DNA of 60,600 bases, filler included, from Hausera hauseri (lineage: Eukaryota): NCBI GenBank assembly GCA_046269625.1. It is 11 parts of 11 records of this genome, joined end to end, with 100 filler letters (N's around TTAATTAATTAA, not from the genome) between each part and the next. Parts side by side here need not be neighbours in the genome. Positions count along the whole stretch, not along the records: positions 23,861 to 28,696 come from JBJURY010419254.1; positions 28,797 to 33,109 come from JBJURY010641108.1; positions 33,210 to 38,313 come from JBJURY010334270.1; 8 more parts are not named here. One strand, given 5' to 3'. Of this stretch, positions 4,861 to 59,735 are shown piece after piece; position 1 is the stretch's first letter, and each line of letters starts with the position of its first letter. The notes under the pieces were generated by a model that made no database searches, was not told the DNA's origin, and saw only the letters and a list, made by a program, of their open reading frames with translations. The position numbers were made by a program, and so were the translations under genes.

Positions 4861-5242
4861 TAACCAAATCATAACATTACTTAAAAAATACTTATCAAAC
4901 AGAATGCAATCTGTTAAGACCACAATCCGACTACATAATACAAGTATATGGAAAGTATAGACAAAACCAAACATTTACATGGCGTACTCTAAACGAAATA
5001 GAATCGCATATTTACGAAAACATAAAAGACGAGATCACGACTGCAATCACCACACAAGCATCAATAAGATTAACCACATTACCAATCGTATCAATTATTA
5101 TATTATCAACGTTTGTTCTCATTATATTAATTGCGGCTTCTCGGTTAATTGCCAAAATTGTCATTCTAAGCGTCTTAAAACTACAGGATTGGATCTAAGG
5201 GCATTGGAACCCAAAGAGTATCTCTATGATAAAATAACCTGA
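4861..5242 (+). pseudogene. C-terminal part of a retroelement type I membrane protein (TM + YDKI tail), frameshifted homolog of 26037-27284
   Basis: One frame gives LTTLPIVSIIILSTFVLIILIAASR (TM); the ORF ends LRALEPKEYLYDKIT versus LRVWEPQEYVYDKIT in the other copy. Confidence 0.8.
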
Positions 5243-5325
5243 CAATTACAGATCGGGTTATTCTGTCATCAAACAAAGGACTGGTTTTGGTTTAAAACTA
5301 TACTTTGTTTTAAGATCAACCTTTA
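5240..5325 (+). promoter_or_regulatory. Candidate stop-codon readthrough element: UGA-CAA-UUA followed by a stem-loop
   Basis: TGA CAA TTA CAG; downstream ORF in the same frame with no stop; AAACAAAG/CTTTGTTT and TGGTTTT/AAAACTA stems; conserved at 25955-26039. Confidence 0.65.
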
Positions 5326-7436
5326 TTTATTGTTCTTCAGATTAGTAAGTATAGAAATGGCGACCAGAAGAAGTAATGAGCGACGTAGCATCGACAATTT
5401 TCTGCAACAATATGTCACTGTGTCGATTCCGCAATCTAAGTCGATATTCAAACAGATTAATAATGAATTGCAAGGAAAAACCCTCGTGAAGTACGAAAGA
5501 ATCATCGATACCCCCAACAACCTTAAAGGCACTACCGAAGAAATTAGGACCGTTTATCTATATGTATTGAGAGATGACAGGGATGCGAAGGCTTATGTTC
5601 TACATCACTTTGTCTACTACGAACCCAATCAGAACCAAAATATATTCATTCATTTACCAGATGGAGAGATCTATTATAGGTTAAAGGATCAAGTTTGGGA
5701 TTCCTCTCAAGGAAGACAGAATCGATATAGTATCTTCCTGCTCAATGGCAAAGATTTTCATCACTAGGACTGTGAACTAGAATTTCGTGTATCTGCATTG
5801 CCAGTAAAACTAATGATTAAGATAACGAACAAAGGAACACCATCTATTCCATTACAATCATTAGAATTTAGAACGAAACCCACCGAAGAAGACCAGGACA
5901 GACACTTACACTTATTTAGATTGGTACCCGATGCAAGTAATATTAGGATTATAGCTTTAAATTATGGAGAATGGGATGACGAAAACTATGTTCCAATTGA
6001 TGTATCAATCCTAGAAGCGGACGGTGTCGAGGTTTACTCAGAGATAATCAGCCCAAGAAAAAGGATCAGAGAAACTTAAGCGGAAGTGACCGGAATAAGA
6101 AAAGAACAACTAGTACGTGGCAAGAATATTGAATTGAACCCTAAAGTAACTGATGACAATGCTAAGATACGCGATAAGCCTGGTACAAGCTCCAACTCAA
6201 AAACGCAAATAAAATTCAAAGTACCTGAAATCCCCAAAAGGTATCAAGTGAAAGGAGCCGATTCAGAGGAAACAAAAATCGAACCTACAGTAGTCACAAA
6301 AAAGAGAAAAATGACTCTTTATGATTACCTATTCAGAAAGGAGAACAAAATCGCAAAAGCAGACATAGAAGCGAAGCCGGACCCATATCCGAACAAAACA
6401 AAGATTCGCCGTCCCCATCTGCGAATGGTCAGAACCGCTCCGCAGATAAAGTTAGACAACAAATAACCGAAATTAACGCATTACTAAAAAAAGACTCTCC
6501 TGACAACGTACATTTTGCTACAGTTAAGAATCATCCAAAAATGTTAGTGACTACTGAATATTATAGTCATCAGAAGATTAAGGAAGCCATGTTTTTTGTC
6601 AAGGTATTACCAGCACGGAAGTTTATGAGAACACCTATGTTTGGGAAAATCCCAAAATAGAGAAATACATTACACCAGCCTTCCAGTCAAAAAGAAATGG
6701 AAAATTGATAGTACCAGTAGACAAGTCCGTAAAGGTTTAACTTAGGAAACAGTATCAGAAGTGTCAGTTAGAGGGCGGGATTCCCGACTTAGATCGAGAC
6801 ACTATCAACTATTTGACGTTGGTACCGGTAGGATGCGACCCCAAAAAGAGTTTTATAAATACCAAAGAAAAAAGGATTTACGGCTATTTATACAAAGATT
6901 ATGATGAACTGGTGTTTGAGCCCATCGAGATCACAATACGAGTGGATTTGGACGATGAAAATTGGAAGAATGAAGAGAACGAATGTCCGGTTTGCGAAGC
7001 CGATCTTAAACAAGGATAAGTAGTCTTGGATAATCCAGATTGCCGACTCAAGTATTATCGAGACTGTCTAGAAAAATGGACATTAGACAACGGCAAAACT
7101 ACTTGTCCGATGTGCAGAGCCGAGGCCGCTGAATTGAAATATTTTTCACGTGGAAGTTATACTCGCGTGGGTCTAATAAAACCCCATTATAGTTATGAGT
7201 TTGAGACGATTTCTCGAGAGAATCGGGCGAGTATGCGCTCAGAGACCAGTCTACAACGACGGTCAAACTTAGTAAGACAGCCTAGCTCGGGTGTCACCTC
7301 TTATGACGCAATAGGCACATCCGAGGATGACGCTCAGGGAAGAGAAATGTTGAGAATTCATAATCAAACTATTTCTAGTCACGCAATAGCAAACAACAAT
7401 ATGGCAGGTGGCCGGAACTCACAAGAAATAAATTGA
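5243..7436 (+). pseudogene. Long accessory ORF of the retroelement 3' region, broken by stops, ending in a RING-H2-like finger
   Basis: ORFs 5330-5767, 5798-6079 and 6086-6466 share one frame and align with 23861-26036(-); CPVC..CRLKYYRDCLEKW..CPMCR at about 6984-7120. Confidence 0.75.
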
Positions 7437-18688: not shown

Positions 18689-18699
18689 CGGTGGCGGGC

Positions 18700-23860: not shown

Positions 23861-26036
23861 CATAATTTACTGGGACTAATGTCCAGTCCATAATGGTTTC
23901 TTTATCTAAGTCGGGAATCTCACTTTCCCTTTGGTAAACTTGATATTGCATTTGAAACATTATTTTAATGTGGTTGTTCACAGGAACGGACAGCTTTTCA
24001 GTCCTTTTGGACCTAAAAATTGGGGTTAAATAATTTCCTATGCTGAGGTTTTCCCAAGCGTATACTCCATCTGGTATTTCTTGTATTCCAGCGTTTTTCA
24101 CACAGAACATCGCTTCCTTTATTTTCTGATGGCTACAATATTCGGCCGTTACGAGTAGTCTGGAAAATTCTTTGTTCGTGGAAAAATGCACATTTTTTTT
24201 GATCTTTTCTTTTTCAAGACGTTCACTTCCCTGATAACGATATCGTTGTCTGATTTCCTCCTTTGGGTTTGAGTTCTAGTTTTCTTTTTATCTCTTCGGA
24301 GTGCATTTCTTTTCTTTTATTCGGGGTTTCTGTGCTCGGAGATTCCTTTTTTATTATTTCGTTTTGAGTTTCTGTCTTTTCAGGCTTTTTAAGTTTTGCA
24401 ACTACGGTTATCTTCGCCATTATTCTTCTTTTTGAATAAGTATTCGTATAGGGATAGTTTCCTTTTTCCCATGGAAAATATAGCTTCTTCTTCACCTTTT
24501 CGGTTTCTTTCGGATTTCTTCAGTACCTTGAATTCTTCTTGATCCTTGGATCTTTGCTTGACCGGCTCTGAATTTGGACTTTGATTGGTGCTGGGGTAAT
24601 TGTTTGTCGTGATGATTTGCTTCGGTTCAATTTTCTAAATTGTAACTAGGTAACTGTCCCCTGTTGTTGATTCAACCGTTCTGACGGAGAAATAAGGCCT
24701 AAAATGCCTTCTGTGTTTGAAACTTAATCCTTCGGGGTTTGTTGTGCTTGTCAAATTTTGTCTAGGGTTATCTGGAGTCCATTCGTGTTCCCATTTAAGT
24801 CCAGAATATATCTCTTAGATATTGGGAACGTTGACTCGCTGTCAAGAGTCTGCTAATTCGAACGTGTTCTCCACTCATAGCCTCCAACATTAGCTTAAAT
24901 CGGCCTTCTGCTGTCGGTGGTAAATAACCATTTCTTTTGCTGACGGTCTGTTCCATCTGCTGCATTACTACTGGGTAAGTCTCGATTTCTCTAACTCCAC
25001 TCACGTGGGTATCAGGTAATTTCAACTTCTTCATAATTCTTTCTATTTGATATCCAACAAGTATACTTCCATCCAGGCAATGGATTAATTCTTCGTGAAC
25101 TAATTCGCTGCCTCTGCCGTTAACTAATTGCTCCTTTTTGATTCCAGTAACTTCTGAAAAAGTTTTTCATACTTTCTTCTTAGGGCTAATGATTTCTGCA
25201 TAGAGTTCGGTTCCTCCTAGTTTTCGTATTGATACTCCAATTGGAACGTCATTTCCTTCGTCTGTTTCTCCGTAATTAACAGTAATAATCCTGGCATTTT
25301 TATCGTCTTGGACTAATTTGAAGGAGTGCAGGTGGTCGTCTTGATCATCTTCCGTTGGTCTTTGAATGAATCATAGTGGTGATAACTGAATAAATGGAGC
25401 GTATTCATAACATACTTCTATCATAAGTTTGACAGGCAGTGTGGCAACTCGAAATTCTAATTCACAATTGTAATGGTGGAAATCTGCGCTATTGATTAGA
25501 AAAGTACTGTATCTATGCTGACGTCTTTGTGCAGAATCCCAATTTTGATCTTTTAACCTATAATAGATTTCTCTGTCCGCTAAGTGAATAAATATATTCT
25601 GGTGATATACTGGTTCATATTGAACGAGTTGTTTTAATGCCTACGCTCGTACGTCCTTATCTTCTCTCATTGCGTATAATCGTACTGTCCGGTTCTCCTC
25701 GTTACTGCCTTTTAAGTTATTTGGGACCTTACGTGTTCGTTTGTATTCTACGAATTGCTTTCCGTGTAGTTCGTTATTGATTTGTCGGAATATTGACTTA
25801 GATTTAGGGATTAGTACTGTGGCACAATTCTGTAGGAAATCGTCGATGCTACGTCGGCTGTTTCCTGAATTAAATTTCTGGGCTTGATCGTCGATACTAC
25901 GTCGGCTGCTTCCGGAATCCATCTGGATTCTTATCAATCTAAACAATAGACAGTAAGGGTTAATCTTACAACAAAGCATAGTTTTGAACCAAAACCAATT
26001 CTTTGTTTGATGATAGAAGAACCCGACCTGTAATTG
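23861..26036 (-). pseudogene. Second copy of the long accessory ORF (homolog of 5243-7436), broken
   Basis: Shared blocks RRSIDxFLQ, IPxSKSIFxQINNEL, EIYYRLKDQxWDS, DFHH, LPVKLM, EVTGIxKEQLV, EYxSHQKIKEAMF. Confidence 0.8.
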
Positions 26037-26039
26037 TCA
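25955..26039 (-). promoter_or_regulatory. Candidate readthrough element UGA-CAA-UUA + stem-loop (copy 2)
   Basis: TGA CAA TTA CAG then an open frame into ORF 25641-25979; hairpin AACAAAG/CTTTGTT and TGGTTTTG/CAAAACTA. Confidence 0.65.
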
Positions 26040-27284
26040 GGTTATTTTATCATAGACATATTCTTGGGGTTCCCATACCCTTAATTCCCGTTCTACGATT
26101 TTAGTACGCTTAGTTCGACAATTTACGGTAACTAATCGAAATATCGCGATACATATTATAAATACAAGCGTTGACAGACTTACGATCATTACTATGGATA
26201 ATGTAGTCAACTTTTCGGGTTCATTAATCATTGTCTCAGTAGTAGTTTCTTGTCTTGTGTTTTTGTCTGCATGTGGCGCTATTTGCATTTCTGCTAAGGT
26301 TTGTATTGTAAACGTTTGACTCTGAGTATCTTTTGCATGTGTTTGGATTATATATTCCGTCTTGAGTTTTAACGAGTTACATTTGGCGTGATGTGAGCCT
26401 TTCCATAAGGTTGTTTTCACAGTTTTATACATCGTACGGCAATATATTTCGACATTATAATTAAGCTTCTCTTCTACTGAAAATAGTACTTTGTGTTGCT
26501 GTATAGAGCATTTTACAGGAATCTTAAGCCATTTCTTTTTGTTCATCTCGCTTGTTGTAGTAAGCTTACCAATGGTGCTTATTAGAGTAGTCCACTTCGT
26601 CGTCGTCGTTTCGATTGGAATTTTCCAGATTCCACTGTCTGGATGATATCTTCCTAAATAAATACTTGATTTATTTATTCTGATTCCATAGAGGTCAAAA
26701 TGAATCCTATATTCATGACCTGCTGCAATTTTACAACAAATCCTAAGATCTGTGATCTTTAGACTACAATATTCAGGCGTTGGACTTGACTCCTTTAATT
26801 TGGTAAATTGGATTGAGATTTCTTGTTTACTGGGCAATCTTCCTTTTGTGTCTATTTGGATACATTTGCCGTTCTTATTAGCAGAAATTTTGACTATATT
26901 TTCATTTAATACCCATTTGATGGGGTCCATCGATTGTACTATGTCATCGAGTTTCGTTATGTTAGCCCGTTCTTTAGCTGGTATGACTAATTTTACTTGC
27001 GGTCTTATTGCTCCTTGAGTGTGCTCATAGTTTTTGTAATACATTCGTATGGTAAAGGTATAAGTGTCTCCATAATTTACGACACAACAATTTTCTTGAG
27101 CTCCATATGGAAAATCACAATGAGTCATTACTCGTTTATTAGCGTTCCATAGGACTACTTGGTATCTTACCGATTTTTTCACGGCTCCGTCCGTCTTAAA
27201 TAACAGACAATCTCCTTTTGAGTCTATACTTTGGACTTTAAAACGATCTAAAGTGTTTAAATCATTTCTTTTTATTCTTATCAA
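26037..27284 (-). CDS. Retroelement-encoded type I membrane protein with about three FN3-like repeats, Thr-rich stalk, TM and YxxI tail
   Basis: Repeated strand motifs NYGDTYTFTIRM, AAGHEYRIHFDL, LKLKTEYIIQTHA; TM LSIVMIVSLSTLVFIICIAIF; tail YVYDKIT. Confidence 0.65.
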   Translation of the reverse strand: MIRIKRNDLNTLDRFKVQSIDSKGDCLLFKTDGAVKKSVRYQVVLWNANKRVMTHCDFPYGAQENCCVVNYGDTYTFTIRMYYKNYEHTQGAIRPQVKLVIPAKERANITKLDDIVQSMDPIKWVLNENIVKISANKNGKCIQIDTKGRLPSKQEISIQFTKLKESSPTPEYCSLKITDLRICCKIAAGHEYRIHFDLYGIRINKSSIYLGRYHPDSGIWKIPIETTTTKWTTLISTIGKLTTTSEMNKKKWLKIPVKCSIQQHKVLFSVEEKLNYNVEIYCRTMYKTVKTTLWKGSHHAKCNSLKLKTEYIIQTHAKDTQSQTFTIQTLAEMQIAPHADKNTRQETTTETMINEPEKLTTLSIVMIVSLSTLVFIICIAIFRLVTVNCRTKRTKIVERELRVWEPQEYVYDKIT

Positions 27285-27296
27285 TTTATTCTTCGT

Positions 27297-27722
27297 TTAT
27301 TGGCGCAATTGTTGTATTAATCCTCCTTGAGCATTGGCCTTCGGAATAATTGAGGCTTTCAGTGATAGTGATAAGACTATCTGTAAATAAGACATGGGTC
27401 TGGTAACAATAGACGAAGTTTTGGTTTTCTTTCCTTCTGTTTTCGGGTTCGCTTTTGTATCGTTAGTGCGTAATTGATATCGTTTTTCTGGCCTTATTTC
27501 CGTCTTCACCACTCGTTGTATTGACACAACTTCTTCCTTCCCGTTTTTACTAATAGAAACAGTGGTGGGTGTTACTCTGATAATTTCGTACGGTCCTCGT
27601 CCAGTACGCGTAAGTTTTAACGATGTGCCTTTCTTCGCTACGGGATAGTGTACATAAACCCAATCTCCGTTTCTTAGATCATGTGGTTTCGCGTTTTTGT
27701 CATACTGCTTCTTAAAGCTCAT
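27297..27722 (-). mobile_element. Gypsy integrase C-terminal (GPY/F) region followed by a signal-peptide-like segment
   Basis: KKQYDKNA..LRNGDWVYV..KLTRTGRGPYEII; then MSYLQIVLSLSLKASIIPKANA; same frame as 26037-27284. Confidence 0.8.
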
Positions 27723-28796
27723 GCAGCAGGACGAAGCACTTCTTTACACGCCTTAAGATGAGCCGCCGGAGCCCTGACCGTGTGAAAACCAGTATTGGTT
27801 TGACCGACATAAATAGGAGGCAGATTTAAGCAAAAAGCCCAACTCGTCTTTCCTGAGCGTGTTCCCTGAAGTAGTTGAAGAGGCCAGGAATAAGAATGCC
27901 ATTTGCATATTCACAACATGACTTGCCGGAGTCAAAGGAAACTTTGCCTCGCTATAAGCCTTGGGTGCTCGTGGTCCACGGTTTATTTTGTTTGTCTCCT
28001 AAATGCACCGCCGAGCACCTCAAAAATCGAAGATGAAAAATCGAAAAAAAAATATTAGACTTGCCAGTCATCGTCATCATCGTCATCATCAAGTGACTTA
28101 ACAATCACTGCTCGGGAAAAAAACAATGAAATCTACCAAGGCGGAGTTCCTCACTGGTGTCAATGAGATCGATTCTGATCCGAGGTTCTCCAGAGTGGAA
28201 GCGAACGGAGAACTTATGGATATGTATCCATGTGCAAAGATGTTGACCCTTCTACTCAACTAAAACCAACAAAACCAAACTAATAACAGTGAGAAGAAAG
28301 GTGGTATAAGTATAAAGCAACATCAACTATAACCTGACTTTCTAAACCTCATAGAAATCCTAATTCCTATTACTTTCTTCTATAAATGATTTATAAATTG
28401 TAGGTGTAAGTTATTGGGACAGATGACCAATGGACTTAATGCATGAGAAGCAAAACACAACTTGCATTTTACTGTTCAGTGAGCTGGTATAAGTTTTGAA
28501 ACAAAAAATGTCACCTTGCATTTCTAAAATCCCTCCCTAATCTACTCAAAATAGTTAGATTCTTTGTTAAGCCATATTTCACAAATTCCTTTGGTTCAGT
28601 TCATGTATTAACTGAGTTTACCGTTTTTTTTTTCTGTAATGGAACAATCTCATAATATTTGGCTTCTCAAAGAATATGTAATTTGCATAACTTTTCNNNN
28701 NNNNNNNNNNNNNNNNNNNNNNNNNNNNNNNNNNNNNNNNTTAATTAATTAANNNNNNNNNNNNNNNNNNNNNNNNNNNNNNNNNNNNNNNNNNNN

Positions 28797-30060
28797 TATA
28801 CCTGGCCGTCCTTGTAGTTTATCTGCCTTTCCGTCAGTCCTTTAAGGAAAAGATCCCCTCTTCATGGAGGCTCTCTTTTTAACTTTCTGTAAATCGAACT
28901 TGTTTGTTTCTGTCGCAAAACATTTCCATTTTTATGAACCTCCTTACCTTTTCCTCTGTTCTTTCCTTTATTTCTTCAATACCCTGTCCGATCCTTTCAA
29001 TATTTTAGGAGCCTTTAGAGTTGTTTAATGTAATGCCCCGACTAGCTCCACTTCTGTCGAGGCTCTGCATTTTGGGTTTGTAGACTCTGTGATGGATTCT
29101 TCGTAGTCCTCGGCAATATCTGCAACGTATGCGTGCCTGCTGTTCGCCCTCTCTCCATATCTTTTCTGACTATACCCCGCACTTTTGAAATTGTCGATAT
29201 ATGTATTTTTTTCTCTTCTGCTCTTGTCCAATTTTGTATAGCAGTCTTCTTTCCTGTGCCCTCTATTGTGACATCTATTGCATTTTATGTTTATATAATT
29301 TTGCCTTGTGTGTCCTTGCTGACCACATCCATAGCATATTATGGGTTTCCTTTCCGGGCAATTCCTGTTAATGTGCCGTTTTTTCCCTCAACCAAAACAT
29401 CTTGGTGCATGTTATAGGTTGCATGCCCTACTTGTGTGCCCGTCATTTTGGCACGACCACAATTTCATCGTACTCTGCCTGCGTATTGCGCAGCTTGAAA
29501 TCCTTTCCTTCACCGCCACATCCTGGTAACTCCGTCGACACTCTCTAGTGTATTCTCTGACTGTGTTTATCTCTTCCGTCTTTGTTGCCACTTCGTGGAC
29601 CTTCCGTATTTTCTTTTTGATTTGCTCCATGATGTTTTCGTCACTGCAATAGATTTCCTTTCTCATCTCTGGATTGTCGCAAAATTGGATCATCAATTCC
29701 TCTGTTAGGGCTTCCAATGTTATTTTGTGGCTAAGAATGCTCTTCGCCAATTGTTCAATTTTGTTGAAGTAGGCGTCCGGCTCTGCCCCTCATTCTGTAG
29801 TTCAAGGCCTCATGCAAATCTCCGCACCGCGTTGTGGGTTTTAAAAATGCTTTTCTCAACCGGTTTTGGTACCTTTCACTTTCTGGTTCACCAGATTGTA
29901 TTTTTCCTGTGCTTCATCCGCCATCAGACACAGGATCGCAGTTTCCTGGTCCGTCTCCGACATCTTTATGAAGTCGAAGTATCTCTCACACTTTCCAATA
30001 AAGGTTTCCACGCTGTTACCTTTCTGGAATTCTTTCGGCATCAATTTCTTCTCGAAGACG
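28797..30060 (-). mobile_element. Family B gag, second degenerate copy
   Basis: MMPKEFQKGNSVETFIGKCERYF homologous to 9395+; knuckles SCQNDGHTSRAC and CYGCGQQGH. Confidence 0.85.
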
Positions 30061-31554
30061 TCTCTTAAAGCGTTGAAGCACGTATCATGTCACGAGTGAT
30101 GATGTTTGAAACTCGATGAAAATTTTGTTGGTATTTGCCACACAACCTGTATCTAAATGATGACATGATGGCGTAATGCATAATATTTAATATATACATA
30201 CTACTGATGTATTTGTCAGTAGTATCAAATGTCATTTACTAATCTATATATAGTATGTTACATTTCAGGTTACTAAATCAATTATTGATTGAATGATTTC
30301 ATTTCAACGGGGGAGTTAGACAATTCATAAATTTATCAATTAAATGATCCAGACTACGGTTAATATAACCCACCTCATGGTGTATGTTTGACCACACTGG
30401 GTAAAATTAAATGGTCTGTGAATGGTCTAACTCCCACTTTGAAATTACAATGATGTCAGAAGTACAGATCATACTCTACCGTCTCATGCATTTCGGAATG
30501 GCTTGATTATCGGACATTCGAATGCAATGCAGGGTTGGAGGATTGCTGATTCTGTGATTCGCGGAACTTTTTACGTTTTTATTTCCTTGTAAATAATGTA
30601 CGGGTAACTATTGTTAAAGTTAAAACGGATGTCGATGATTTTACCACAAAAACAATATTAAATCCCATTATGATAACATACTGCATTCTAATATACTGCA
30701 TTTTTGTTTTAATGCATCAATTGAATGAAATTAATAAATCCGCCAAATTTAATTCATCATCTAGAAATTCACAGTGAAGCAACATATGCGCACCAGAATT
30801 TATCAATTCGCAAATATTCGAATTGTGAACCGATATGCGAACTTCTGACGTCATAATCGGACTCCCCATACATGTTTTCCTATCTATCTATGCTTAAAGA
30901 TTTATCGATTCTTGTACCCCACAGTTTGAAAATCAAGTTAATTAAAGCGCGTGCACACACATTTGTGAAATTTTCAATGTTAATTTACTCGGTAAGGATT
31001 CATCGAACATGGTCTATTTTATTTTTTATGCAAGGTTTTCACAGATGTGGAATCGAATAAAACCATCAGATTCTTAGAACAATGTACTCCTGATCGAGTT
31101 TTTGAGTTCGAATAGCTTTGTATTCGACTTGTAAGCTCGAATTAGAATACATGATACCATATTCCGATTTGCCATGCACGACTTCCTATCCCGCCCGCTT
31201 ATAGATTTATCGATTTCTACTTCAGTGGGATTCAAATTCACATTTTGCTTAATTCAGAATATTGACTTTGTATCTATATAGTACATTTTAATGCAATAAT
31301 TTTTATGCATTAGGGGTTTTCCGCTGTTAGAGTTCCGCTGTTAGATTTTTTGAATAGTTCGATATTCGATATTCGGGCGAAAATTTTTTCGAATTTCGAA
31401 TATGTAACTCGATATTTGAAATCTCCATAGTCGACTTCCAATCTGTCCCCGATAATTATAATACCGAATTTCGCTTTCTTGGGGCCTAAAAGCCTATGGG
31501 AAGTCTGCCTCAGTTGCATTTTTTATCGATATTATTCAAAATCGGCTGGATAAA

Positions 31555-32340
31555 TTTAAATTCTAACTTCACATTCATATAGTGCATCGTATTTCCAATC
31601 GATCCCACCAGGTCACATATCCTATTCATCAATATTGAAAATATCGGAAATCCGATATTATTGGTTTTTGCACACTTACACACGAGTTTTTGCACTGTGT
31701 GGTGTACATCATGGTACATCTCGATGTTCTCTATCTACCTGCACTTGACACCGATCGATTCCATCAATCCTAGGCTGCACAATGACCAATATGCGAAAAG
31801 TGAAAAAGTGCCTTGGAAACCGTATCCAAGAGCACAGCTGACTAGAGTACTTTACTGATCGATAGTACATCAAGTACTGCACCCGCCGATATATGTGCCA
31901 TATTGATATTATTGATTTTCAATTTTTAGCGGAAAGGCCTATTTATGTACTGTCCCAGTTGGTAGTTATTCGAAAACCAATCAATATATTTAAATTCTAA
32001 CTGCAGATGCACACAGTGCATCATGTATGCTACCGATTGCACCCGGTGCCGGGTGTAAATAATGAATATTGGGAATATCGGAAATCTTATATTATTGATT
32101 TTTGCACACCACATGTGCTGCACAATTGCACGGTGCACCAATCTATGAGCACTGATGTGCACTATCGATTAGCGCTTTGTCCCGATCGACTCGATAAACA
32201 CTGCACTATGCAGCGATCGATTTGTGAAATGTGCAAAAATGTGCTTAGCAACGGTGCCTAGCGGCACCATCGCCTAGCACTCTACCGATCGATAATGCAC
32301 AGCGTGCACTATCGACTGAGACATGTGCACTATCGATTTA
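31555..32340. repeat. Diverged tandem repeat with a period of about 430 bp
   Basis: tttaaattctaact...aatatcggaaatc..tattattg.tttttgcacac at about 31555 and about 31989; ORFs 31510-31719 and 31926-32162 are paralogous. Confidence 0.7.
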
Positions 32341-34820
32341 TAGATGCGCACACACCCCCGGGGGGATGTGCCAGAATCCCCATTTTTACTGTACTACCGA
32401 CCGCACCACTAAACTTGCCGTTGTCGATTTTACCACAAACCGTTCATTTCCCGACGGTAACATCAATGGTTCATTGAAATTCACCACTTTTCCTTTCGCT
32501 TGCTTTTTGTCTCTTTGACCGACTTCCCACTTTTTTCAAACACGCGAACCCCATGTTTCCCACATCATTCGAACGCCCATACTATACTCTACACTTTCTC
32601 TTATCCATTCCTGCTCAAATTTTGCTTCGGGAAAAAGTTCGTTTTTTTTTTGCATTTCCCGGATTTGTCTTTAGCGACACGCAAAAACCGACCTTACCAT
32701 TCAACTCGCCGTTGTCGAATTGACCAATCAGCATGCGAGCGTTACGTGGTTGGTCAGTTGGTGCGTGGGTGGATTCCCACCCATGTCCTTGTTCCAGATT
32801 CATCTTTTTTCCTCTACTATCTTGTAATAAAAATATTGTGAATGCCATATTTTTGTAAATTTTTATATATATATGTGCCAAAAACATTTAAGTATTACAT
32901 CAACCTTTACATTAATTTTTATAAATTTCGTTAATATTTCTACCAGATACTTTATTGTTCAATGGAAAATAGTTAATAAAAATAATTTACTTAATATTAC
33001 AACACTTTTGTAGATATCGAAGTTGTTACAATATACATATCCCGTTTCGGTGAACTAAACAATAGTTACTTATATGATGTCATTCAAGGAACACTGCATG
33101 GGTAAAATTNNNNNNNNNNNNNNNNNNNNNNNNNNNNNNNNNNNNNNNNNNNNTTAATTAATTAANNNNNNNNNNNNNNNNNNNNNNNNNNNNNNNNNNN
33201 NNNNNNNNNCGAATTATGTCGGCCTTTAACATTCGTTCTACCTCTTTCGTTATTTCTGGTCTCAATGAATGAGGAGGTGGATACCATTTAGGCATTTTCT
33301 GTTCCTCTAGATTGATTTCATCGTTGGAACAGGGTTTCTTCCTTAACGGGAATTGTTAATCTCAGGGCTTTTGCTCTGCCTGTGTCTTCCTCATTTTGTG
33401 CGATTATTGACCGGTACTTACATAGTAATTTGTAGAACTTTCAATATGCCTAAGGAGAGAATTTGGTTTCAACATGAGTTGAAAATTTAGCACACTTGTA
33501 TGGTTTCTCCTCTATTGTCACTGCCGATACTCTGTACGTATGACCCAAGGTAGCATACAATCTTACTCAGTTTGGCGCGTTGTTCACTAATTTGATAGGT
33601 ATTCGTCCCGTCATTATTCTACATAGAATATTGCTAAACATAAGATTTGGGTCAATGTTCTCTTAAGGCTCGAAGTATATTGGGCGATCCTCGTCCTGTC
33701 GAATCTGTGAGAAAATTATCATTTCAGTTTTAGGCGGAATGTCTTTATCTACCGGAATCCATAATTCGCCCGATTTCCTTTCCTTTATTACTTTTGTCTC
33801 TTTTATAGTTTCGAGCACAATTAATTTTCCGTTATGCACATCGATTGCCATGCCCGGCATTTGTTTTAATATATCACAACCTAGTACTACATCGTCTGTT
33901 AACTGGTCCATTATCGCAAGTTTATGTTGAAGTGCTTGGCCCATCATATAAACGGTAGGAGTCCATTTAACTTTCGACTTCGATACTTGCCCAAATGCCC
34001 CTGCGCTACCTGGATCCGATAATGCGGGTGGACATTGCTGGTCTCGCAATGTGGTTGGTATAGATTCATATTTTATAAACGATTTTTCTGATCCGGTGTC
34101 GATTAATGCATACCCTTCCCAATCTTCGATGTGTATTTTAGCGAAGGATCTTTCTTCTGCTACTGTTCCGTAGCAATTTGACACTATCTTTGATTGTTTT
34201 ATTGTGGAGATTCTATATCCATTTATCGTTATTTCTGGCGATGAAATGATATCTTGTTTTAATTGTATTTACTCTCCGTTCGGGTACAAGTTATTGTTTG
34301 TTATTTTAATAACGCGACTGTCGATGAGCGGTTCCTGGAGTAGTAGACTCGAGATCGAACACATTTTTGGGTTTTCTCAGATTGTTGATTTCGATTCTAT
34401 GTGACGCGGTATTCTTTTTGAGTACAATATTCCGTGGTCGTTTTCGGTTGGTCTTTGGTTGATAACATTCATTTTCCGTAGTACTCTGTATTGTTTTGTT
34501 TTTTCATAAGGAACTTCATAATTAATGGGCTTTTGATAGTTTTCGGACCTACGTGATACAATTGAATTGCGGTCGCAGTCTTCATATACTGGTGATGTTG
34601 GTGGAATGATGGGTAATGGCGCGTTAATCACTGAATACATCTTGTGCATCTTCATTCTGGAGCTCACTTCTCTTCCCTTAGGCTCGTCAGCATCTGAATC
34701 ATCCTTTCGTATCATTGCTTTCTTATTTTTACGTTTATTGAGAATCGACGGCCCCCCTCGCCGTTTGCGATTATAGTACCCGACGTGGCGTTCTACGTCA
34801 TTTTTCCATCGGTTCTCTTC

Positions 34821-36650
34821 TTAGGCCTTGAGCATTTTCCCGAAGGGCGTGATAATTTCAGTCAAAATTTTGCAGGAAAATCCTGTTAAGTTGAATATTT
34901 TATAGCCGTTGATGATGGCTTGGATCACTGCTTTGATTACTTTGACTAAAAAGTAAATGGCTAGGAATCCAGATGCGGCTCGTCCAAAAATTAGAAACCT
35001 TCCCCAAATCTTATACAGTATTTTTGAAGTTACCCTTTGATAGTGATTAGCGCCGAGTAACGATTCCCATTTCACTTGGAAGCGGGTGTCATCCATGACC
35101 ATTGACATAGCCCAATTCAGTTCATAAGTTCTTTGGCGTGGAAATGCTAAGAATTGCTTAAATGCTTCTATGTCTTTTGGTCTATAAATTCCTTTATTAG
35201 CCGTGTCCTCAAACTTCTCTTCTGATAATCCCTTTATTAAATTTGTCCCAGTTAGTTTACTAGGGCCTGCGGCAGCGCCTCCATTGGGCAAACGTATCCA
35301 GTCGGTTCCACTACGTCGGAACATGGGTTCACCTAGACTCGTCTTACATTATTTCAGTACTGCTGGTTCGGTTGAGTTTGCCGATAATACTCTGGTGAGT
35401 GGCATCGCTAGTCTTGGCATATTCTCATAGATGACCGGTAATTCTTGCATACATCTTTTCTCTTCTACGTTGATTTGTACGTCTCTTTTCTCGCATGCAT
35501 ACGTTAATAGGACTTCTTCGGTATCTCGTCCAAAAACGTCTTCCTTCATTGGTATAATTGGTGATGCTAGTTCTGGGTTGGCATAGATTAAGGCCAGCTT
35601 GGTTCTCATGACTTCAGTATCTAATCTGCAGTCATTTGTTATCATTTTGTGGTATAGTTCTGCTATTCCGGTCTGTTCTTTGAAACAGAAATAGTCGTCT
35701 CGATTCTTGAGATTATCCTCAATCCGTATGTCTTGCGTTTTCAAATTATACGTTTTCATGTTGATTTCAGTTTCTGCCACGAAAAATGCTTCGTAATTTG
35801 TGGCATACATAATTACATCGCAGCGTGTAAACATTTCTTTTCTAAGAAACTTCAATCCATGTGCGTCCGATATCAATGTCGTCGGTGTGAGATGATCTAT
35901 AACATTTTCCCTTGATCTAGTATTTGTGTGTAACTTATCTGTATAACGTTTTACGCTTGTCTCATTAAACTTTAGTTCTTTGATTTTAATGAAGTTACAA
36001 TCTCTCTTGGAGGGTGGGCTCCATTCAACGACTGAACTTCTGAACGTGCAAGCTCCATCTTGAATGTGACAGTTTTGATTTTCAGTGAATAGCTTGGTAA
36101 CACTATAAAACATCGCTTTTAAAGATCTTAATTCGGTTTCATAAAAGTCCACGACTACTATTCCTCATTCTATTCTGTTCCCTGTGTCATATTTTCCTCC
36201 GACACAATAACCGGTATGCATGTTCAATTTTCCTACTGCCACTTTGTAGGCTCTAATTATTTTCTATTCTTAGGCTTCCAGTTCCATGCTGTCCCAGACC
36301 ATTTTACCTGTTAACCGGGCTCCTAAACAATGTTGTGTATCTACGTTCATTGGAATCAATGGAGTGGTCGGTTTAATTATTGAAGAATGCCCGTGCATAT
36401 TGCCACAATGAAAAATGCTGCGAGAGCTCCGTATCGTGCATTCTGTCGCATCCATTGCGATTAATTCACGTTGTTGATATAATATGTACCTTTTTTGTCT
36501 CGAGTTTATGAGGTCTCGCATCTTCGTATGTTTCTAAGTCCATTAAGGAATATTTCTGACCCACTTTGAACTTATCGCAATTATATACGGTAACTGCCCC
36601 TAACTGCTTCACTAGCATCATTATCGTCACCAAGTTGATTAACCAAATGG
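34821..36650 (-). pseudogene. Chuvirus-like glycoprotein (env-like), broken by stops and frameshifts
   Basis: Signal-like IWLINLVTIMMLVKQLGA then VTVYNC; ECTIRSSRSIFHCGNMHGHS; TM WGRFLIFGRAASGFLAIYFLVKVIKAVIQAIINGY. Confidence 0.8.
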
Positions 36651-36927
36651 ATTCGTTTTCTTTGTTCGGAGAGATATTTCGTATGATGTCTTCTAAGTTA
36701 TTAGTCCCTTTTGAATTATCCTCTTTTTCAAATAATTTAGTCCATTTTATTTCCTTAGGTACTCTTCTTGCAGCTTTTCTGGCTAATTCAATTGTCTTGT
36801 CAAATTCATTTTCCCGAAAAGGGTTAGTTTTTAATGCCAGATATATCAAGACTTTCCTTAATTCTTCCATCGTATTGTCTATCGTAATTCTTTCAATTAC
36901 TGTTTCCTCAGTGAGAGTGCTTTTAGA

Positions 36928-37767
36928 TTATTTAAATCGCGAAGTTCTTATCGTCCGGGTTATATTATATATTAGTCTTTCCTTCTCAGATAGTATGTCG
37001 CCTTGGAATTCGGTGTAATTGACTGTGCTTATTAGATCTTTCATTAGTTCAGTCAGTTTTTCATTATCGGAACTTGGAGTAGGTACTGATAGTTGTCTTA
37101 ATTCTCTAATCAGATCCGCGTTATAACCGATTTCCTTTATTTTTCTTGCTCTTCCGACCGGCCGTTTCGCTTTTATAGGTGGTGCGGTTTCGCTCAGCGG
37201 GACTATATTCTTATCGTATTGCGGTTTGTCCTCGTCCGTCTGTAAGTATTCGAAATACATTGAAGCAGCCTGAATCCCCATGATTCTTCCAACGCACTGT
37301 TCTGTATGTGCCTTTCTCATAGCTTTGTCTTTGGTTTGCTCACTGGCGATTATTGTTAATATTATCCTATTTTCCTCGAAAGGTATAATCCCTACGTCTA
37401 TTAAGGATTTTAACTTATCTAGTATCCTACCTCTGAAATATAGCCGATAATTAATTCCTTTCCTATCATCCTTATCCATTATCCGTTGTTTTATATCCGC
37501 AACAGTGGTATAAGTAGTGCACTCAAATTCCTCGTCATCCATCCATTCGGATGATACCTTTACTTTAAGTTGCGTTTTTGGTTTATTTCTTAGAAATTTA
37601 GCGTACTTCTTTATTAGGAGCTTGGGTACAGCGCTGTATGCGGTATTTTCACTAGATAGTTTGGTCAAGGTTGGAATCAATCTCCTTAACCTATCTTCAC
37701 TTATATGTATTTTCAACACATTGCTCAGTTCCTTTTCGGCTATTGTAGGATCAAGCAGCATTTGCAC
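36928..37767 (-). CDS. Family A upstream protein segment with an internal ubiquitin-like domain (about 37348-37575) and AT-hook-like motif
   Basis: QLKVKV..TTVADIKQRI..YRLYFRGRILD..SLIDVGI..IILTI follows the ubiquitin-fold pattern; KRPVGRARK. Confidence 0.7.
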   Translation of the reverse strand: MQMLLDPTIAEKELSNVLKIHISEDRLRRLIPTLTKLSSENTAYSAVPKLLIKKYAKFLRNKPKTQLKVKVSSEWMDDEEFECTTYTTVADIKQRIMDKDDRKGINYRLYFRGRILDKLKSLIDVGIIPFEENRIILTIIASEQTKDKAMRKAHTEQCVGRIMGIQAASMYFEYLQTDEDKPQYDKNIVPLSETAPPIKAKRPVGRARKIKEIGYNADLIRELRQLSVPTPSSDNEKLTELMKDLISTVNYTEFQGDILSEKERLIYNITRTIRTSRFK

Positions 37768-38413
37768 GTCAAATTTCGTCCTCTGGGTACCAATAAGTTA
37801 CTCAAAAATTTGTATTGAAATTCTTTGGCTTTGTTCGTTTAGACCTTGGAGATATTCATCACACTCGGCTTCATTACCTGCGTCAGGTAACTCAGTTCAT
37901 TAGCGCCGCATGTCCGACCTGGACTCTTTCGCGTAATTCTCTTATCTAAAGTTGCAATGTTTTCATTACGGATATCCTTAACCCGTCTCCATTTCCGCAC
38001 TCTTGTTGTATAAATGTTATTAGTCGGCACATTTCTTCTGGTTTTATCAAGGCTTTCTCCCGATAACTAGTCATTTCTGTGATTCTGTCTCTTTGTCATC
38101 TCTGTATAAATTCCATTTTGTTGTTCATTTCAGATTCCGTAAGGGAATACTTGTTCTTGAAAACTTCTGTTTCTCTCAGTAATTCGTTTAGCTCGCGTTG
38201 TCTTTTCTCGGAGCGTAACCGGGTTTCTTTTACCAAACGTATTCGATTTGTTAGTCGTTTGGCTACTACTTCGTCAATTTCTGCCATTTCTGTTAATAAT
38301 AGGATTAATTTGTNNNNNNNNNNNNNNNNNNNNNNNNNNNNNNNNNNNNNNNNNNNNTTAATTAATTAANNNNNNNNNNNNNNNNNNNNNNNNNNNNNNN
38401 NNNNNNNNNNNNN

Positions 38414-54450: not shown

Positions 54451-55099
54451 AAGGTCTTCATTCAGAGATGATGATGATTATAAAGATAACTCTATTTCGC
54501 AGTGTTTGTTACATATTAACATAGCTAGAAACCATCGACCACATCGAATGTGAACAATTAGTCTTATGAGTCAAGTGAGAGAATGGCTAATCAGGGCAAT
54601 CCTGGCTCGCAGGACCCTCCCACAGGTTGGACATGNNNNNNNNNNNNNNNNNNNNNNNNNNNNNNNNNNNNNNNNNNNNTTAATTAATTAANNNNNNNNN
54701 NNNNNNNNNNNNNNNNNNNNNNNNNNNNNNNNNNNATTTCACAATCGACGATATTATATAATTAATCATAGAAAAACCGTCTCGTATAAATCTCGAAAAG
54801 GCGATATTGCTCCTAATATCGGAGACACTTAATAAAGCTGAATTAAAAGCCACAATCGGAAAAATAATTCTTGCTAGTAAAGCGATAATTCCGCAATATG
54901 GAAAATGGAGTGATCTATTTCTACAAAACGAAAATGAAAAGCTACTCGAGACAGAACCCACAAATGTAGAAAAAGCTATTCTGGAAATCACTCAAAATGT
55001 ATCTCAAGAAGAAATTATTCCCGTATTCATGGAGAAAATGACGGACCTATTACAGGAAGGAATCCAAAAAGTGATTATATAAAGTCCAATGGAATATTC

Positions 55100-58042
55100 G
55101 TGAAACTTATGTTACTCTTATTAATGTTATTTTTAAATTTTAAGAAGACTGGCACAATATTGGCTTATGATTGCAACAAAATATACAAAGGTAGCTACTA
55201 CTCATTGACGGATTTACAATCATGCCCAGATGCTCTTCCGAAAAAATTAGAGACTCAAACGCAGACTTTATATATTTATTATGATAAAACTATGCTACAC
55301 TTAGAGGGATTGGAATGCTCCCTACGTGCATCTCGTACTATATCTCATTGCGATCACTTACACCACGACACTTACATTAAGCCAACTACCGTACCTAAAT
55401 ATGTGTCAATAAATGCTACATATTGTAGAGATGCAGAAGAAACTCAACAGTTAAAATGGGGAGACATCTTATTGACCTCTACAAAAGCGCAAGTAACCCA
55501 ACAAGAGAAATGGATTGCTGGTTACAAAGTGAAAAAGAAAACTGTGGCGGAGGAAATTTTGATACCGGAAAAGGTACCAAGGCAAGCATAGTAGTGCATG
55601 ACCAATACGAGGTCGAAAATTAAGGATAATACCTATATTTTCGAGACTAGTACAAATTTAATGGTAAACGCATCCTTTTGTAAGTTGCAAATGGGACACT
55701 GTCATACTAGAACATCCAAAATAGTGTGGACACCTCCCACAAGTTATGATTGTACATTAGTACAAAGCAGAAAAGGAGAATTCAATGTTACTATCGGAAA
55801 ACGCTATGCTCGTCATTATGAGACTAATTGTGAGCATACCAATATTCAAGTTATTCCGGAAATGAAAACTCCTAAAATTGTGATATCTAAGGACATCAAA
55901 GGAGGAGTCAAATTTATACAACAAGATGTGATCACAAAATGCGGACAACAAGTATATAATACTAATTACGATAATTACTTCATATCAGAAAGAGACATCA
56001 TAGGTGCGGATAATGCTGCCACTAATAAAGCTCAGCTAGTGAACATTGTTGATTACATCGCAAACCGTGATGATTTTTTGTTTTACCTAACTCACAAATC
56101 CATTGAAGAAATATACTCTGAGACCATTCAGAACTTTTTTAGAGTGAATTTCGAAACCTTGAGAAACCGTTTGGCCATTAATGCATCTAACCCCGAAATG
56201 ATCACAATAACTCTACCGTTCAGCGAAGGAATTCAGGGCATAGTTTTAGGAGAACTTCTATACACATACAAATGTAAACGATTAGACCTACCCCTGATTA
56301 CTGGTACTCCCTGCTATTCTGAGATACTTGTTAAGTATAATGAAGAAATACAACATGTTCATCCGATTACCCGAGTACTTCTGGCACCACATACAATACT
56401 CACGGAAATTGAGAATTGTTCAGCACTGAATAAACCATTTATCAATTACGACAATAAGGACCTTTGGGTTAGATTACCGGATTGTGAAATGGTTAAAGAA
56501 AGACCTAATAAATTAACGATGGCAAATTTGAGTATTGCAATTAAAACCAATATGTTTACGGACGTGTCTAAATCCGCATTATACAGCAAAAAAGAAATTG
56601 ATTCATTCGTGAAGTTTCTAGCATATCCTGGACAGAGAGAGCAAATAGTAAATCGCGGAATACACCGAGTAATCGACGACACAGCTGGAGAAGAAAAATG
56701 GGACAGGTTATGGACGCCTGACGCTTATACTAAAATAGTTTCAAATCTGTGGTGTAAAATGTGGGGTGGATTCCTGAAATTCGGCCAAGTAGCCTCTGGG
56801 TTTCTGGCCATATACTTTATCATACAGACTTTGAAAGTCTGTATCAATTTCGTATTAAATGCCCATGAGATTTACAACTTAACGGGACAATCTCTAAGCA
56901 TAATAGGTGCTGTATTTTTCCCACTTGGTAAATTCATTAAAGCTTGCCATGAGAAACAATGGTTAGGTAAACTAGAAAAACATATTCATTATAAATCAAA
57001 GAAGCCTTTTCGAAAGGATACCCTGTCAAGTTCCGATAACGACAACGTCCCTGGATATTATACTACCACAGGGATTACAAAAGATACGAAAGGAAAATTC
57101 AGGTTTATGAAACCAAAGGAGAAAAATAGACCTAAATCACTTGTTGCGCCATATGAGAATAAAACAGTTCCCATTTGCATATTACCAATATTAACAGACC
57201 TAAAGGATCCGTATGGAAAAATGGAGGAGTATATAAAATTACGTAATTTACCAAAATATTCCCAGGTAGAGATACGTCAATCCATTATCACGCGAAACAT
57301 GGAAAACAACTGTGTAACATTACATACATCACCTAAGTTAGGTATACTGCCACCTATACCTTATCACCAAACAACCCGATTAATGAAAAATCAAGTAGAT
57401 GGAGAATCCAATTTAACGACCTCACAATCCGCTAGTAAGCAAAACACAACATTACAACGTGTAAGTTGCTACCCAGACTTGACTGAACTCAAAGAGGAAG
57501 TGAAAGGAGTGGACAACTATACTCAATCTTTGGAAAGTTTAGCGGTTATATTATCAAGCGGCACTACCCGATATTGTTCAGCTAGTTACAGCTTGATGGA
57601 ACCACATATAGATAATCATAACGATGTATTAACGTTTCTCAAGCTGTTATGGGATAATCGACCACACACAACAGTTCACTTTGATAGTTTTGACATGAAT
57701 GCCATGGTCGACATCGGAGCTAACGTTGCATTAATAGGAAAACATGCGATTCCGGAAGACTTACAACCTCAGATAAAATTGACTACTGAAGATTCGCCTT
57801 GTACGACGTCTGCCTTCCAACAGTGCAGCAAGCCTTATGGATATTGGAAATGTGAACCGTGGATTGGCGGACAAAGAATTAAAATAACTTTTGATGTAAT
57901 GACTACCTTAGATCCAAGATGTATTTTAGGTATGAACGTGTTACGAAAACTAGAAGGTGTTCACATAAATTTACAATCGGGATCAATTTGTCCAAATAAC
58001 CAAGATATCCCCTTAAATACAACAAAGCAGTCATTTGGGTAG
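55100..58042 (+). pseudogene. Chuvirus-like glycoprotein in frame with the aspartic protease (frame damage near 55530-55620)
   Basis: LMLLLLMLFLNFKKTGTILAYDC..SLTDLQSC..ECSLRASRTISHC; TM WGGFLKFGQVASGFLAIYFII; the same 814-aa ORF contains AMVDIGANVALI (57710) and ILGMNVL. Confidence 0.85.
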
Positions 58043-58470
58043 GACGTGTTGAGAAAATACCACCAAATTCCTGGATTGTTATACATTCACGGACGGTATA
58101 CCCAGACAATAGTGTAATTGAGTTTATATCAAAAACTCTTCGAAATGGACTTATATTACTACATTATTGTATTAAGGTAATTGGAGGAACGGTTTCAGTA
58201 GAAGTTTTAAACACCACTCCAAGATGTGTCACGATATTCACTAAAATAAAAATTGGACAATCCCTTGAAACTACACGCCACGAGAAATACGACAACAAAG
58301 TTGCGATCATCTCTACAGCGGAACAAAAAAATGTTGAAGACACACTTAATGTCGTTCTTGCTAAAGCCAAGAAAATGTTATCAGATGAATTTCTAGGGAA
58401 TTTCTCAGATCTCATTTATTAGTACCTTGATATTTTTGCAAAAAACGAAACGAATGTCGGACGAACAGAT

Positions 58471-59370
58471 TTGATCGAATTCCGATTATCATTTATTGTC
58501 GATCCCACAACCGAAAAAGAGGTAGATTTATTACGACAACCAATACCAAAATGGTATCCTCCTCCAAAAGCACTCCAAAGGGAAGTTGAGGTACAAATTC
58601 AATCAGTGCTCGATAAAGGTATTATAGAACCAAGTCAATCACCATGGCCCTCTCTCATAGTTATGGCCAAGAAAGCTAATACGACTAAATACCGCCTGTG
58701 CGTAAATTACGTTACCTTAAATAAACACCTTATGAATCACGCTTATCCAATCCCTCGAATACGAGACATCATTGATGAACTAAAAGATTGTAAATATTTC
58801 ACCACATTAGACTTGCAAAGTGGATTTTGGCAAATCCCCGTTGCCGAAGAGGATCGGTGGAAAACTGCATTCAAAACCCATACGGGAATCTATCAATTCA
58901 CACGCATGCCATTTGGTTTAAAGACGGCACCCACTTTCGTCCAAGAATTTATTCATTTAGTACTAAAAGGAGTGCGGGGGCTATCGTACATTAACGACAT
59001 CCTCATAGCCTCCAAGACATGGTCTGCACATTTAGTGGAATTAAAGAAATATTTGATTGGATCAGACTTGCTAAATTGAAATTAAACCCAAAAAATGCGA
59101 ATGGTGTAAGAAGGAAGTTAGATACCTGAAATTGGTGGTTTCCAGTAAAGGGATATCGACCAGCCCCGATTTAGTAGCTAAAATATTGGGATACCCCCTC
59201 CTAGCACCTTGCATGAAATGAAAGCCTGGTTAGGATTGGGAGGATTTTATGCTACTTTCATACCCGACTTTGCTGAAAATAACCAACCGCAATACAAGTT
59301 ATTAAGAAAGGACCAAAAATGGGAATGGACTGATGAGAACTAGAATGCCTTTGACGAGATAAAAAGACGA
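58471..59370 (+). pseudogene. Reverse transcriptase (Ty3/Gypsy)
   Basis: YRLCVNY..LN, LDLQSGFWQI, KTAF, MPFGLKTAP, YIND (mutated YxDD). Confidence 0.92.
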
Positions 59371-59735
59371 ATGGTGTCAGCACCGATATTGAGATACACA
59401 GATTTTTCGTTACCATTTATTCTGAAAACCGACGCTAGCATCAAAGCTATTATGGTCACCTATGGAGGACGAAGTTTAAATAAAGCTGAACGGAAATACT
59501 CAACCACTGAACTAGAGCTCTTAGCAATTCGAGATGGACTACGATATTATGAGTATTATGTTTATGGCCATAAAGTCATAGTATATACTGATCAAAAAGC
59601 ACTGTTGTCTTTACGTTCCGACAACAGACACGTATCAAGTCGACTGCAAAGATGGAAATTCGAACTTCTGAATTATGACCTTGAATACTGATATTGCCCA
59701 GATAAAGAGAATGTGGATGCAGATGCGCTTTCAAG
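59371..59735 (+). pseudogene. RNase H (Ty3/Gypsy)
   Basis: ILKTDAS, YSTTELELLAI, VYTDQKAL, RLQRW, NVDADALSR. Confidence 0.9.

Follow-up and report, generated by a model that had tools for sequence, protein, structure and literature searches.

Decayed copies of a probable giant Burro-like Ty3/gypsy family in Hausera hauseri, with relatives encoding a predicted second membrane glycoprotein behind integrase

Retroelements of the Ty3/gypsy type that bear an env gene are usually pictured as having three genes and one glycoprotein. Planarian Burro carries, within an open reading frame (ORF) of ~4,900 aa, a Ubi/SUMO domain, a dUTPase-like spacer and a mononegavirus-like env located between gag and pol in the same frame (PMC6431247), and BURRO1 is expressed on knockdown of a PIWI protein (PMC8532177). 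GAG-ENV-POL errantiviruses of Platyhelminthes, Nematoda and Bryozoa have an env of the HSV/gB type, and six such elements from Schmidtea span 14.5-18 kb (PMC13524379). Juno and Vesta of bdelloid rotifers carry a DEDD-family accessory exonuclease downstream of pol and a dUTPase between protease (PR) and reverse transcriptase (RT) (PMC5408684). Here, we analyzed a window of 60,600 nucleotides from Hausera hauseri (GCA_046269625.1), composed of 11 contigs with N spacers between them, in which four contigs carry pieces of an element comparable to these: K7 (33210-38313, read on the minus strand), K11 (54736-60600, plus), K5 (23861-28696, minus) and K2 (4861-11472, plus, used from 4861 to ~7440). 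All positions refer to the window unless a locus name precedes them.

None of the four copies is intact, each being interrupted by stops or frameshifts. We consider it probable that they are decayed copies of what is likely one wider giant Burro-like Ty3/gypsy family, in which intact relatives encode a single polyprotein ordered Gag, ubiquitin-like domain (UBL), signal, fusion glycoprotein (G), transmembrane segment (TM), PR, RT, RNase H (RH), integrase (IN), signal, FN3 repeats and TM. This chain is predicted to be threaded through the endoplasmic reticulum (ER) and cut into two membrane glycoproteins, and an accessory gene encoding a cupin-exonuclease(-RING) protein would likely be expressed from spliced mRNA.

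The 5′ half of this layout is already known from Burro and the GAG-ENV-POL errantiviruses, and the element is provisionally filed here as Burro-like. Features in common with Burro and GYPSM1 are the huge single ORF, a Gag that has CCHC knuckles, env positioned between gag and pol with a Ubi/SUMO-like domain ahead of it, the series PR, RT, RH and IN, and accessory ORFs; a dUTPase-like spacer may be shared as well, and ankyrins occur in some relatives here (P0036 and P0008) (PMC6431247). The same review names MATH, BIR, BCL2, Smc and midasin-like domains and elements of >30 kb, and names neither a second signal-FN3-TM protein after integrase nor a DEDDh nuclease ORF nor spliced accessory genes (PMC6431247). 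MATH and BIR had no Pfam match in the proteins scanned here, the window copies being incomplete. For the BCL2-like domain expected between UBL and env, Pfam Bcl-2 gave no match in the K7 and K11 ORFs or in 15 relatives (Pfam only), and a helical region is present. Like the errantiviruses, the element places a class III-type env before pol, and the Schmidtea env rows have cysteine and motif landmarks in common with the G of K7 and K11 when compared by eye only (PMC13524379). The main text on errantiviruses contains none of the terms fibronectin, exonuclease, ubiquitin, readthrough or "splic-", and the post-integrase region is not described there (PMC13524379). The ORF3 nuclease of Juno and Vesta is of the DEDDy (RNase D-like) type and stands in place of env (PMC5408684), whereas the putative nuclease here is of the DEDDh (ISG20/Pan2/SDN1-like) type, is fused to a cupin-like domain, is often duplicated or disabled, and occurs alongside G and the FN3 membrane protein. 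A post-integrase signal-FN3-TM protein, a cupin-DEDDh gene and accessory splicing did not turn up in the papers that were searched on such elements; the original description of Burro, Repbase entries and supplements may cover its 3′ end.

The domain order is real in unbroken natural ORFs, and both halves are present on a single natural contig, L001. A phmmer search with K5 returned 34 matches, including P0008, P0012 and P0013, which are natural ORFs in which integrase continues into a signal-like segment, an ectodomain and a TM. The Pfam family PF24664 (Monjiviricetes_fusion) was detected in 21 of 85 long Pol relatives of P0012, and 14 of these 21 G-bearing Pols (2,694-4,057 aa) form one Pol clade with SH-aLRT support of 100 (100/100 when nine rows were re-tested). 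In every member of the clade G lies before PR in the same ORF; two post-integrase hydrophobic segments are present in 11 members, one in two members (with Ig domains) and none in one, and an FN3-like repeat of the K5 type was detected in seven. The longest of them, P0036 (4,057 aa), contains in one chain CCHC, UBL, signal, G, TM, ankyrins, PR, RT, RH, IN, signal, two repeats and TM, so that the order UBL-G-PR-RT-RH-IN-FN3/TM, proposed in the original prediction from the window alone, exists in a single unbroken natural protein. CCHC, G and Pol are also combined within one ORF in P0039, P0044 and P0062, while the window copies are broken. All 14 clade proteins extend 397-802 aa beyond the start of the integrase tail, and G-Pol followed directly by a long terminal repeat (LTR), the arrangement that would speak against the predicted order, was not encountered among them.

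A metagenome scan with the integrase tail identified 58 loci, and ORFs were read in the top eight and in L015. L001 (16,645 nt) carries a 3,703-codon ORF and a further ORF at 12085-13473 that is matched by P0002 (E 6e-10), and thus presents G-Pol-FN3-TM and a homologue of the post-stop ORF on one natural contig, spanning ~13.4 kb without LTRs. L003 is organized in the same way. Of the top eight loci, seven carry one or two accessory ORFs, and the eighth ends short of that point. As a separate observation, extra aspartic-protease-like domains occur before PR or just after integrase in P0013, P0042, P0044, P0048, P0049, P0052, P0053, P0055, P0061 and P0008.

Within the window, the 5′ half is represented by K7 and K11, in which signal and TM segments were called by hydropathy (signal cut-off of 1.6). 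On K7 (minus strand), a coiled-coil-like stretch reaching the contig end at 38313 lies upstream of a ubiquitin-like domain (37387..37536; Pfam ubiquitin E 3e-4), in a region that matches P0052 and P0053 at 25%. A UBL is found in the same place in P0036 (E 4e-5) and another in L001 (E 0.0025), both of these hits and that of K7 being under the Pfam cut-off. This is followed by an internal signal-like segment (36592..36648; hydropathy of 1.79) at a position shared with 12 of the 14 clade proteins, a broken class III-type fusion glycoprotein G (34830..36590; PF24664 in three pieces with E 3e-8, 6e-13 and 8e-21) with its TM at ~34911-34991, and a segment running to the contig end (33210..34157) that holds an aspartic protease (33855-34157; RVP E 3e-6), a spacer and the start of RT, as recognized by tblastn of clade proteins. 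On K11 (plus strand), a signal-like segment (55079-55135), G and a TM (56801-56857) occupy 55079..56944 (PF24664 E 6e-10 and 3e-45; hydropathy), followed by an aspartic protease (57653-57958; RVP E 0.0016) and a putative dUTPase-like spacer (58024-58320), whose profile has dUTPases as top PDB matches at E 0.16-0.26 only. The best four PDB matches of the PR-RT spacer profile were dUTPases and one dCTP deaminase, at weak E-values of 0.16-0.7, and the spacer had no Pfam match. The remainder of K11 (58423..60600) is a broken RT, RH and integrase up to its core, cut by the window end (RVT_1 E 1e-20, RT_RNaseH E 6e-22, Integrase_H2C2 E 3e-17, rve E 8e-5). The Pfam order in K11 and in the relatives, PR-RT-RH-IN with gypsy-type domains, is that of Ty3/gypsy (Metaviridae). 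PF24664 precedes RVP in K7, K11 and 14 relatives, and Gag was seen in the relatives only. K11 belongs to a diverged repeat family present in many copies: 4,034 contigs from X1, a run that is possibly the source sample, align to it, 3,321 of them at <95% identity and 189 at >=99%.

The 3′ half is represented by K5 (minus strand) and K2 (plus strand). K5 contains the C-terminal tail of integrase (27462..27719; phmmer matches and alignment A2) with a YxLR-like end typical of the family, and a weak Pfam integrase C-terminal match covers 27300-27743. In frame with it is a second internal signal-like segment (27330..27395) that aligns with the N-terminal signal-like stretch of P0001; it is under the hydropathy cut-off in K5 and strong at the equivalent position in 13 of the 14 clade proteins. 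The ectodomain (~26200-27296) includes a repeat at 26259..26564 for which AlphaFold2 (AF2) modeled seven strands with a mean pLDDT of 84, and the top Foldseek and VIA matches of this model are FN3 domains (best Z of 9.8; rmsd of 2.2 over 79). Sequence identity to these structural matches is 7-20%, and K5 had no Pfam or PDB match to FN3 at the sequence level; the repeat is predicted to adopt the FN3 fold, a seven-strand beta sandwich. A TM anchor of the FN3 protein follows at 26139..26195 (hydropathy of 2.98; K2 equivalent at 5079-5135, hydropathy of 2.94). K2 itself retains the end of the FN3 repeat, the TM, the tail, the stop (5240-5242) and a block invariant between K2 and K5, all within 4875..5251. 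A repeat profile seeded with K5 did not expand at E 1e-3 and required E 0.05, at which it spread to the seven clade proteins mentioned above and to another five loci, all decoys staying at E 0.3 or higher. An extra FN3-like repeat was also seen between G and the main protease in L003 (L003:4781-5089), far from the post-integrase cassette.

Downstream of the FN3 protein lies an accessory ORF. In K5 it occupies 23861..25922 (minus strand; 41-46% to P0003) and comprises a predicted cupin-like domain, a DEDDh pseudo-exonuclease (to ~24800) and a C-terminal part; it is broken, and the contig ends before a RING. The K2 counterpart (5357..7436, plus strand; tblastn of P0003) ends in a RING (~6990-7118) that is interrupted by a stop and scores weakly (Pfam E 5e-4), and its nuclease half falls short of that of P0003 by ~160 codons. 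The RING of P0003 is intact (E 3e-7). A profile of the K2 and K5 accessory ORFs matched the exonuclease of PolC (E 2e-5), DnaQ and ISG20L2 in the PDB, and Pfam RNase_T was matched by four relatives, three of them above cut-off. The homologue on L001 was modeled with a pLDDT of 87 and matched ISG20 by Foldseek (E 9e-11, rmsd of 2.9), and it is predicted to consist of a cupin-like domain and an ISG20/Pan2-like nuclease. When alignment A3 was read by eye, the D-E-D-D-H residues were present in L001 and in the second ORFs of L005 and L007, as well as in L003 with one D-to-E change, and were lost in K2, K5, P0002, P0003 and five ORFs of relatives; at the sequence level the K2/K5 lineage has thus lost the nuclease catalytic residues, and its protein is a presumed pseudo-nuclease. 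RING is fused to the nuclease in K2 and P0003 and forms a separate ORF in L002 and L004. Accessory nuclease genes stand in tandem at L005:7268-10374 and L007:6861-9923, one disabled and one intact at each locus, separated by short repeats in which a GC-rich motif is common to both loci.

How the four contigs relate to each other was assessed against the original prediction, which tiled them into one element of two overlapping halves. Homology within each half was borne out: K7(-) and K11(+) are homologous by tblastx (pieces of 26-52% identity, E 1e-90), and K2 and K5 align by blastn at 66.9% identity over 1058 nt. Also as predicted, K11 reaches the window edge within the integrase core and K5 begins in the integrase tail; the ends meet within integrase, ~80 codons apart when placed on P0012, which would suit a single element split by assembly. 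Signal and TM segments inside the Pol frame were recovered by hydropathy, apart from the K5 signal under the cut-off. The tiling itself did not hold. K7 and K11 have no blastn match to each other, and where they overlap, in G and PR, amino-acid identity across G is only 34%. The overlap between K2 and K5 shows 67% nucleotide identity. The ~970 nt preceding the K5 integrase tail (27723-28696) are unrelated DNA, for which neither 30 family proteins nor 58 loci gave a match; the K5 copy is therefore taken to be 5′-truncated within its own contig, with its 5′ part lost. The contigs are four copies from at least two subfamilies per half, and physical unity of K2, K5, K7 and K11 is contradicted by the overlaps and extremely improbable, while K11 could still be paired with an unseen K5-like copy. 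A different question is whether the halves come from one family at all, since K7 and K11 might be GAG-ENV-POL elements with another 3′ end, and K2 and K5 the tails of another lineage of the clade. This would fit the position of the K11 Pol outside the clade in both trees, the existence of other G-before-Pol proteins without an FN3 repeat (e.g., P0077) and the cut of the K5 copy within its contig. Conversely, a clade G profile scored K7 at E 5e-95 and K11 at E 1e-87, and six other G-bearing Pols at E 2e-8 or worse and a seventh not at all, placing the G of K7 and K11 far nearer to the clade than any other G tested; the K7 UBL region matches the clade members P0052 and P0053; and the two halves branch as divergent sisters of a common reference set in the G tree, where the join is flagged for long branches, and in the nuclease tree, both being unrooted. 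We regard separate families as unlikely, and a family-level link of K7 and K11 with K2 and K5 as probable. With the repeat profile restricted to 18 repeats of G-bearing relatives, K5 was recovered at E 3e-7, and the best decoy reached 0.56.

Several observations weigh against the one-family reading nonetheless. Those 18 repeats had originally been collected with the K5-seeded profile, so that the leave-out test is not fully independent. In the Pol trees, K11 forms a long branch that groups with an unrelated chromodomain Pol and not with the clade (support of 98, and 96/80 in a second tree); constraining it into the clade was not rejected (AU p 0.21), which is no proof of membership. No close intact relative of K7 or K11 was found, nor any natural sequence joining a K11-type Pol to a K5-type tail: searches with the K11 Pol gave relatives at 26-40% only and, among the best 120 of 307, none on the 16,242-, 12,445- and 4,939-bp contigs encoding P0001-P0004, and with G as query a word search gave no long relatives and nothing in viral_contigs. 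No examined contig has both G and RING, as L001 and L003 have G without RING, and L002 and L004 have RING and start inside integrase. Likewise, a direct-repeat pair of LTRs was not found in L001, L003, L005, L007 or the four window contigs, all of which are truncated. A polypurine tract (PPT) scan gave no convincing LTR start, and a search for tRNA genes found none. The LTR-bounded relative with both G and the FN3/RING region that had been proposed as a check is therefore matched in part, by G-Pol-FN3-TM and an accessory ORF on L001, with neither an LTR pair nor G and RING together.

For the accessory ORF, splicing and stop-codon readthrough were compared as routes of expression. An acceptor-like site, consisting of a pyrimidine tract and AG, lies just upstream of the ATG of this ORF in both window copies: in K5 (25922..25965, minus strand) the AG ends at 25939, leaving 17 nt to the ATG at 25922, and ranks 4 of 356 AGs in the contig, and in K2 (5309..5359, plus strand) it ends at 5340, before the ATG at 5357, and ranks 1 of 499, the two sites being at the homologous base. 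Of 12 accessory ORFs in the relatives, five have YAG immediately ahead of their first ATG, compared with 2.9% in the background (P 1e-5), and eight have an acceptor-like site <=20 nt away, compared with 7.5%. Because of these sites, and because six of seven relatives keep their accessory ORFs apart from the polyprotein, expression from a spliced mRNA appears likelier than readthrough. Against this, the acceptor tract score was devised after the K2 site had been seen, although the YAG-ATG count is independent of that score, and splicing does not account for a 29-nt block at the stop that is identical in K5 (26028..26056, minus strand) and K2 (5223-5251). This block contains the stop TGA (26037-26039 in K5) followed by CAA TTA, and a leaky UGA-CAA-UUA could add the pseudo-nuclease and RING to the tail of the FN3 protein, yielding a membrane-anchored E3-like protein, possibly in coexistence with splicing. 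The shared hexamer fits CAR YYA, a motif essential in readthrough of TMV (PMC2754532), occurs at the same stop in both copies with an open frame behind it, and has a chance of 0.27% by composition (10 of 6,630 stop triplets in the window, 0.15%). It falls within an identical run of 29 nt, the longest in the 1,018-nt, 69% K2/K5 alignment (the next has 17 nt), with hairpins shared by both copies (z -2.6 and -3.0). The frame stays open for 38 codons past the stop (dN/dS 0.17 overall), L006 has TGA CAA with an accessory ORF in frame behind, P0001 and P0004 terminate at the same residue, and stop suppression is described for env of SIRE1 (PMC2829016). On the other hand, post-stop codons 1-26 hold six amino-acid-changing and two silent differences (one pair of copies), and the coding-like signal is contributed by codons 27-38, a stretch shared with the acceptor and its downstream exon. 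In L006, too, an acceptor-like site (rank 14 of 216) lies 3 nt upstream of the third ATG, and the hairpin there is unremarkable (z -0.2). The separation of accessory ORFs from the polyprotein in most relatives also speaks against readthrough. Taken together, we view a leaky stop as a doubtful, if possible, route. In terms of the readthrough-RING region of the original prediction, a RING does end the ORF; the region is mainly cupin and DEDDh pseudo-exonuclease, and splicing is the likelier means of its expression. The FN3 label of the same prediction is upheld by the predicted fold (AF2, Foldseek and VIA) and not by Pfam or PDB sequence matches. Two further candidates concerning P0002 were set aside: the proposal that its start reflects a change of frame after the stop was discarded (p 0.04 in one of 18 tests), and its match to K2 just before the ATG (p 0.002), considered as protein conservation, is explained equally well by the T tract of an acceptor.

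Returning to the favored one-family reading with a spliced accessory gene, a scheme for the polyprotein can be proposed from its anatomy and from general polyprotein topology. In a single chain, each internal signal would open a luminal segment and each TM would close it. The first internal signal would send G into the ER lumen, and with the TM of G the chain would re-enter the cytosol for PR-RT-RH-IN, until the second signal brings the FN3 repeats into the lumen, where the last TM would anchor them. Cleavage by signal peptidase and the element's own protease may then release two type I glycoproteins, G and the FN3 protein, with Gag and Pol tethered to the membrane and made about one-to-one, and PR-RT-RH-IN remaining cytosolic. 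G would fuse membranes, and the FN3 or Ig protein, which is very variable in repeat number and sequence, could have a role in attachment or act as a receptor decoy. The nuclease, pseudo-nuclease and RING proteins would be translated from spliced mRNAs and plausibly act against host RNA and protein defences. In alphavirus and flavivirus polyproteins, internal signal and stop-transfer segments alternate and signal peptidase frees the glycoproteins, and in complex retroviruses spliced mRNAs give rise to accessory genes. The likeness to these viruses is in working only, as Pol here is of the Ty3/gypsy type and the fusogen of class III type. More tentatively, and with a lower likelihood than the family assignment, these elements may form an undescribed invertebrate Ty3/gypsy group that arrived independently at the layout of a complex enveloped virus, with a class III fusogen and an FN3 attachment or decoy glycoprotein made from one Gag-Pol polyprotein, a spliced ISG20-like nuclease, its dead paralogue and a RING ligase directed against host small-RNA and protein defences, and in K2 and K5 a leaky stop that also gives a membrane-anchored pseudonuclease-RING.

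To the usual picture of env-bearing elements, the relatives add a second, fast-changing membrane protein fused behind integrase, containing FN3 repeats in some cases and Ig domains in other cases, together with accessory genes, likely spliced, that differ between relatives and include RING proteins and ISG20-like nucleases predicted to be active or dead. If this is correct, the class III fusogens of retroelements may work with a partner protein, as in many enveloped viruses, and the accessory genes become named candidates for element resistance to host silencing. Annotators of Burro-like elements are thereby given a concrete place to look, 3′ of integrase.

Other parts of the window hold further features. 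K6 (28797-33109), within the 23861-38313 stretch that the original prediction covered, is a fragment of another retroelement, and part of it (28797-30900, minus strand) is homologous to a second, ordinary gag(CCHC)-pol fragment downstream on K2 (9377-11472, plus strand), outside the composite. A common gag-like region links 17831-22470 (minus strand; K4) with 38414-39700 (minus strand), at 78% over 654 nt. Upstream of it, K4 contains stacked broken fragments of a DEAH helicase and a TMEM131-like Ig domain, and a third fragment that we take to be a calcium-ATPase exon. K8 has identical 74-nt ends (38414-38487 and 44363-44436), consistent with a circularised or tandem assembly of a gypsy element. 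K10 (50121-54635) includes a long tandem array at ~51310-52240, and its segment 50172-50525 presumably resembles a fish repeat, in which case the sample may mix two animals. Lastly, an intron-free ORF of 982 codons at 45313-48806 (plus strand) encodes a FYVE finger (Pfam E 1e-16) and Ig-like repeats, continues past its stop, and looks like a host-gene chimera.

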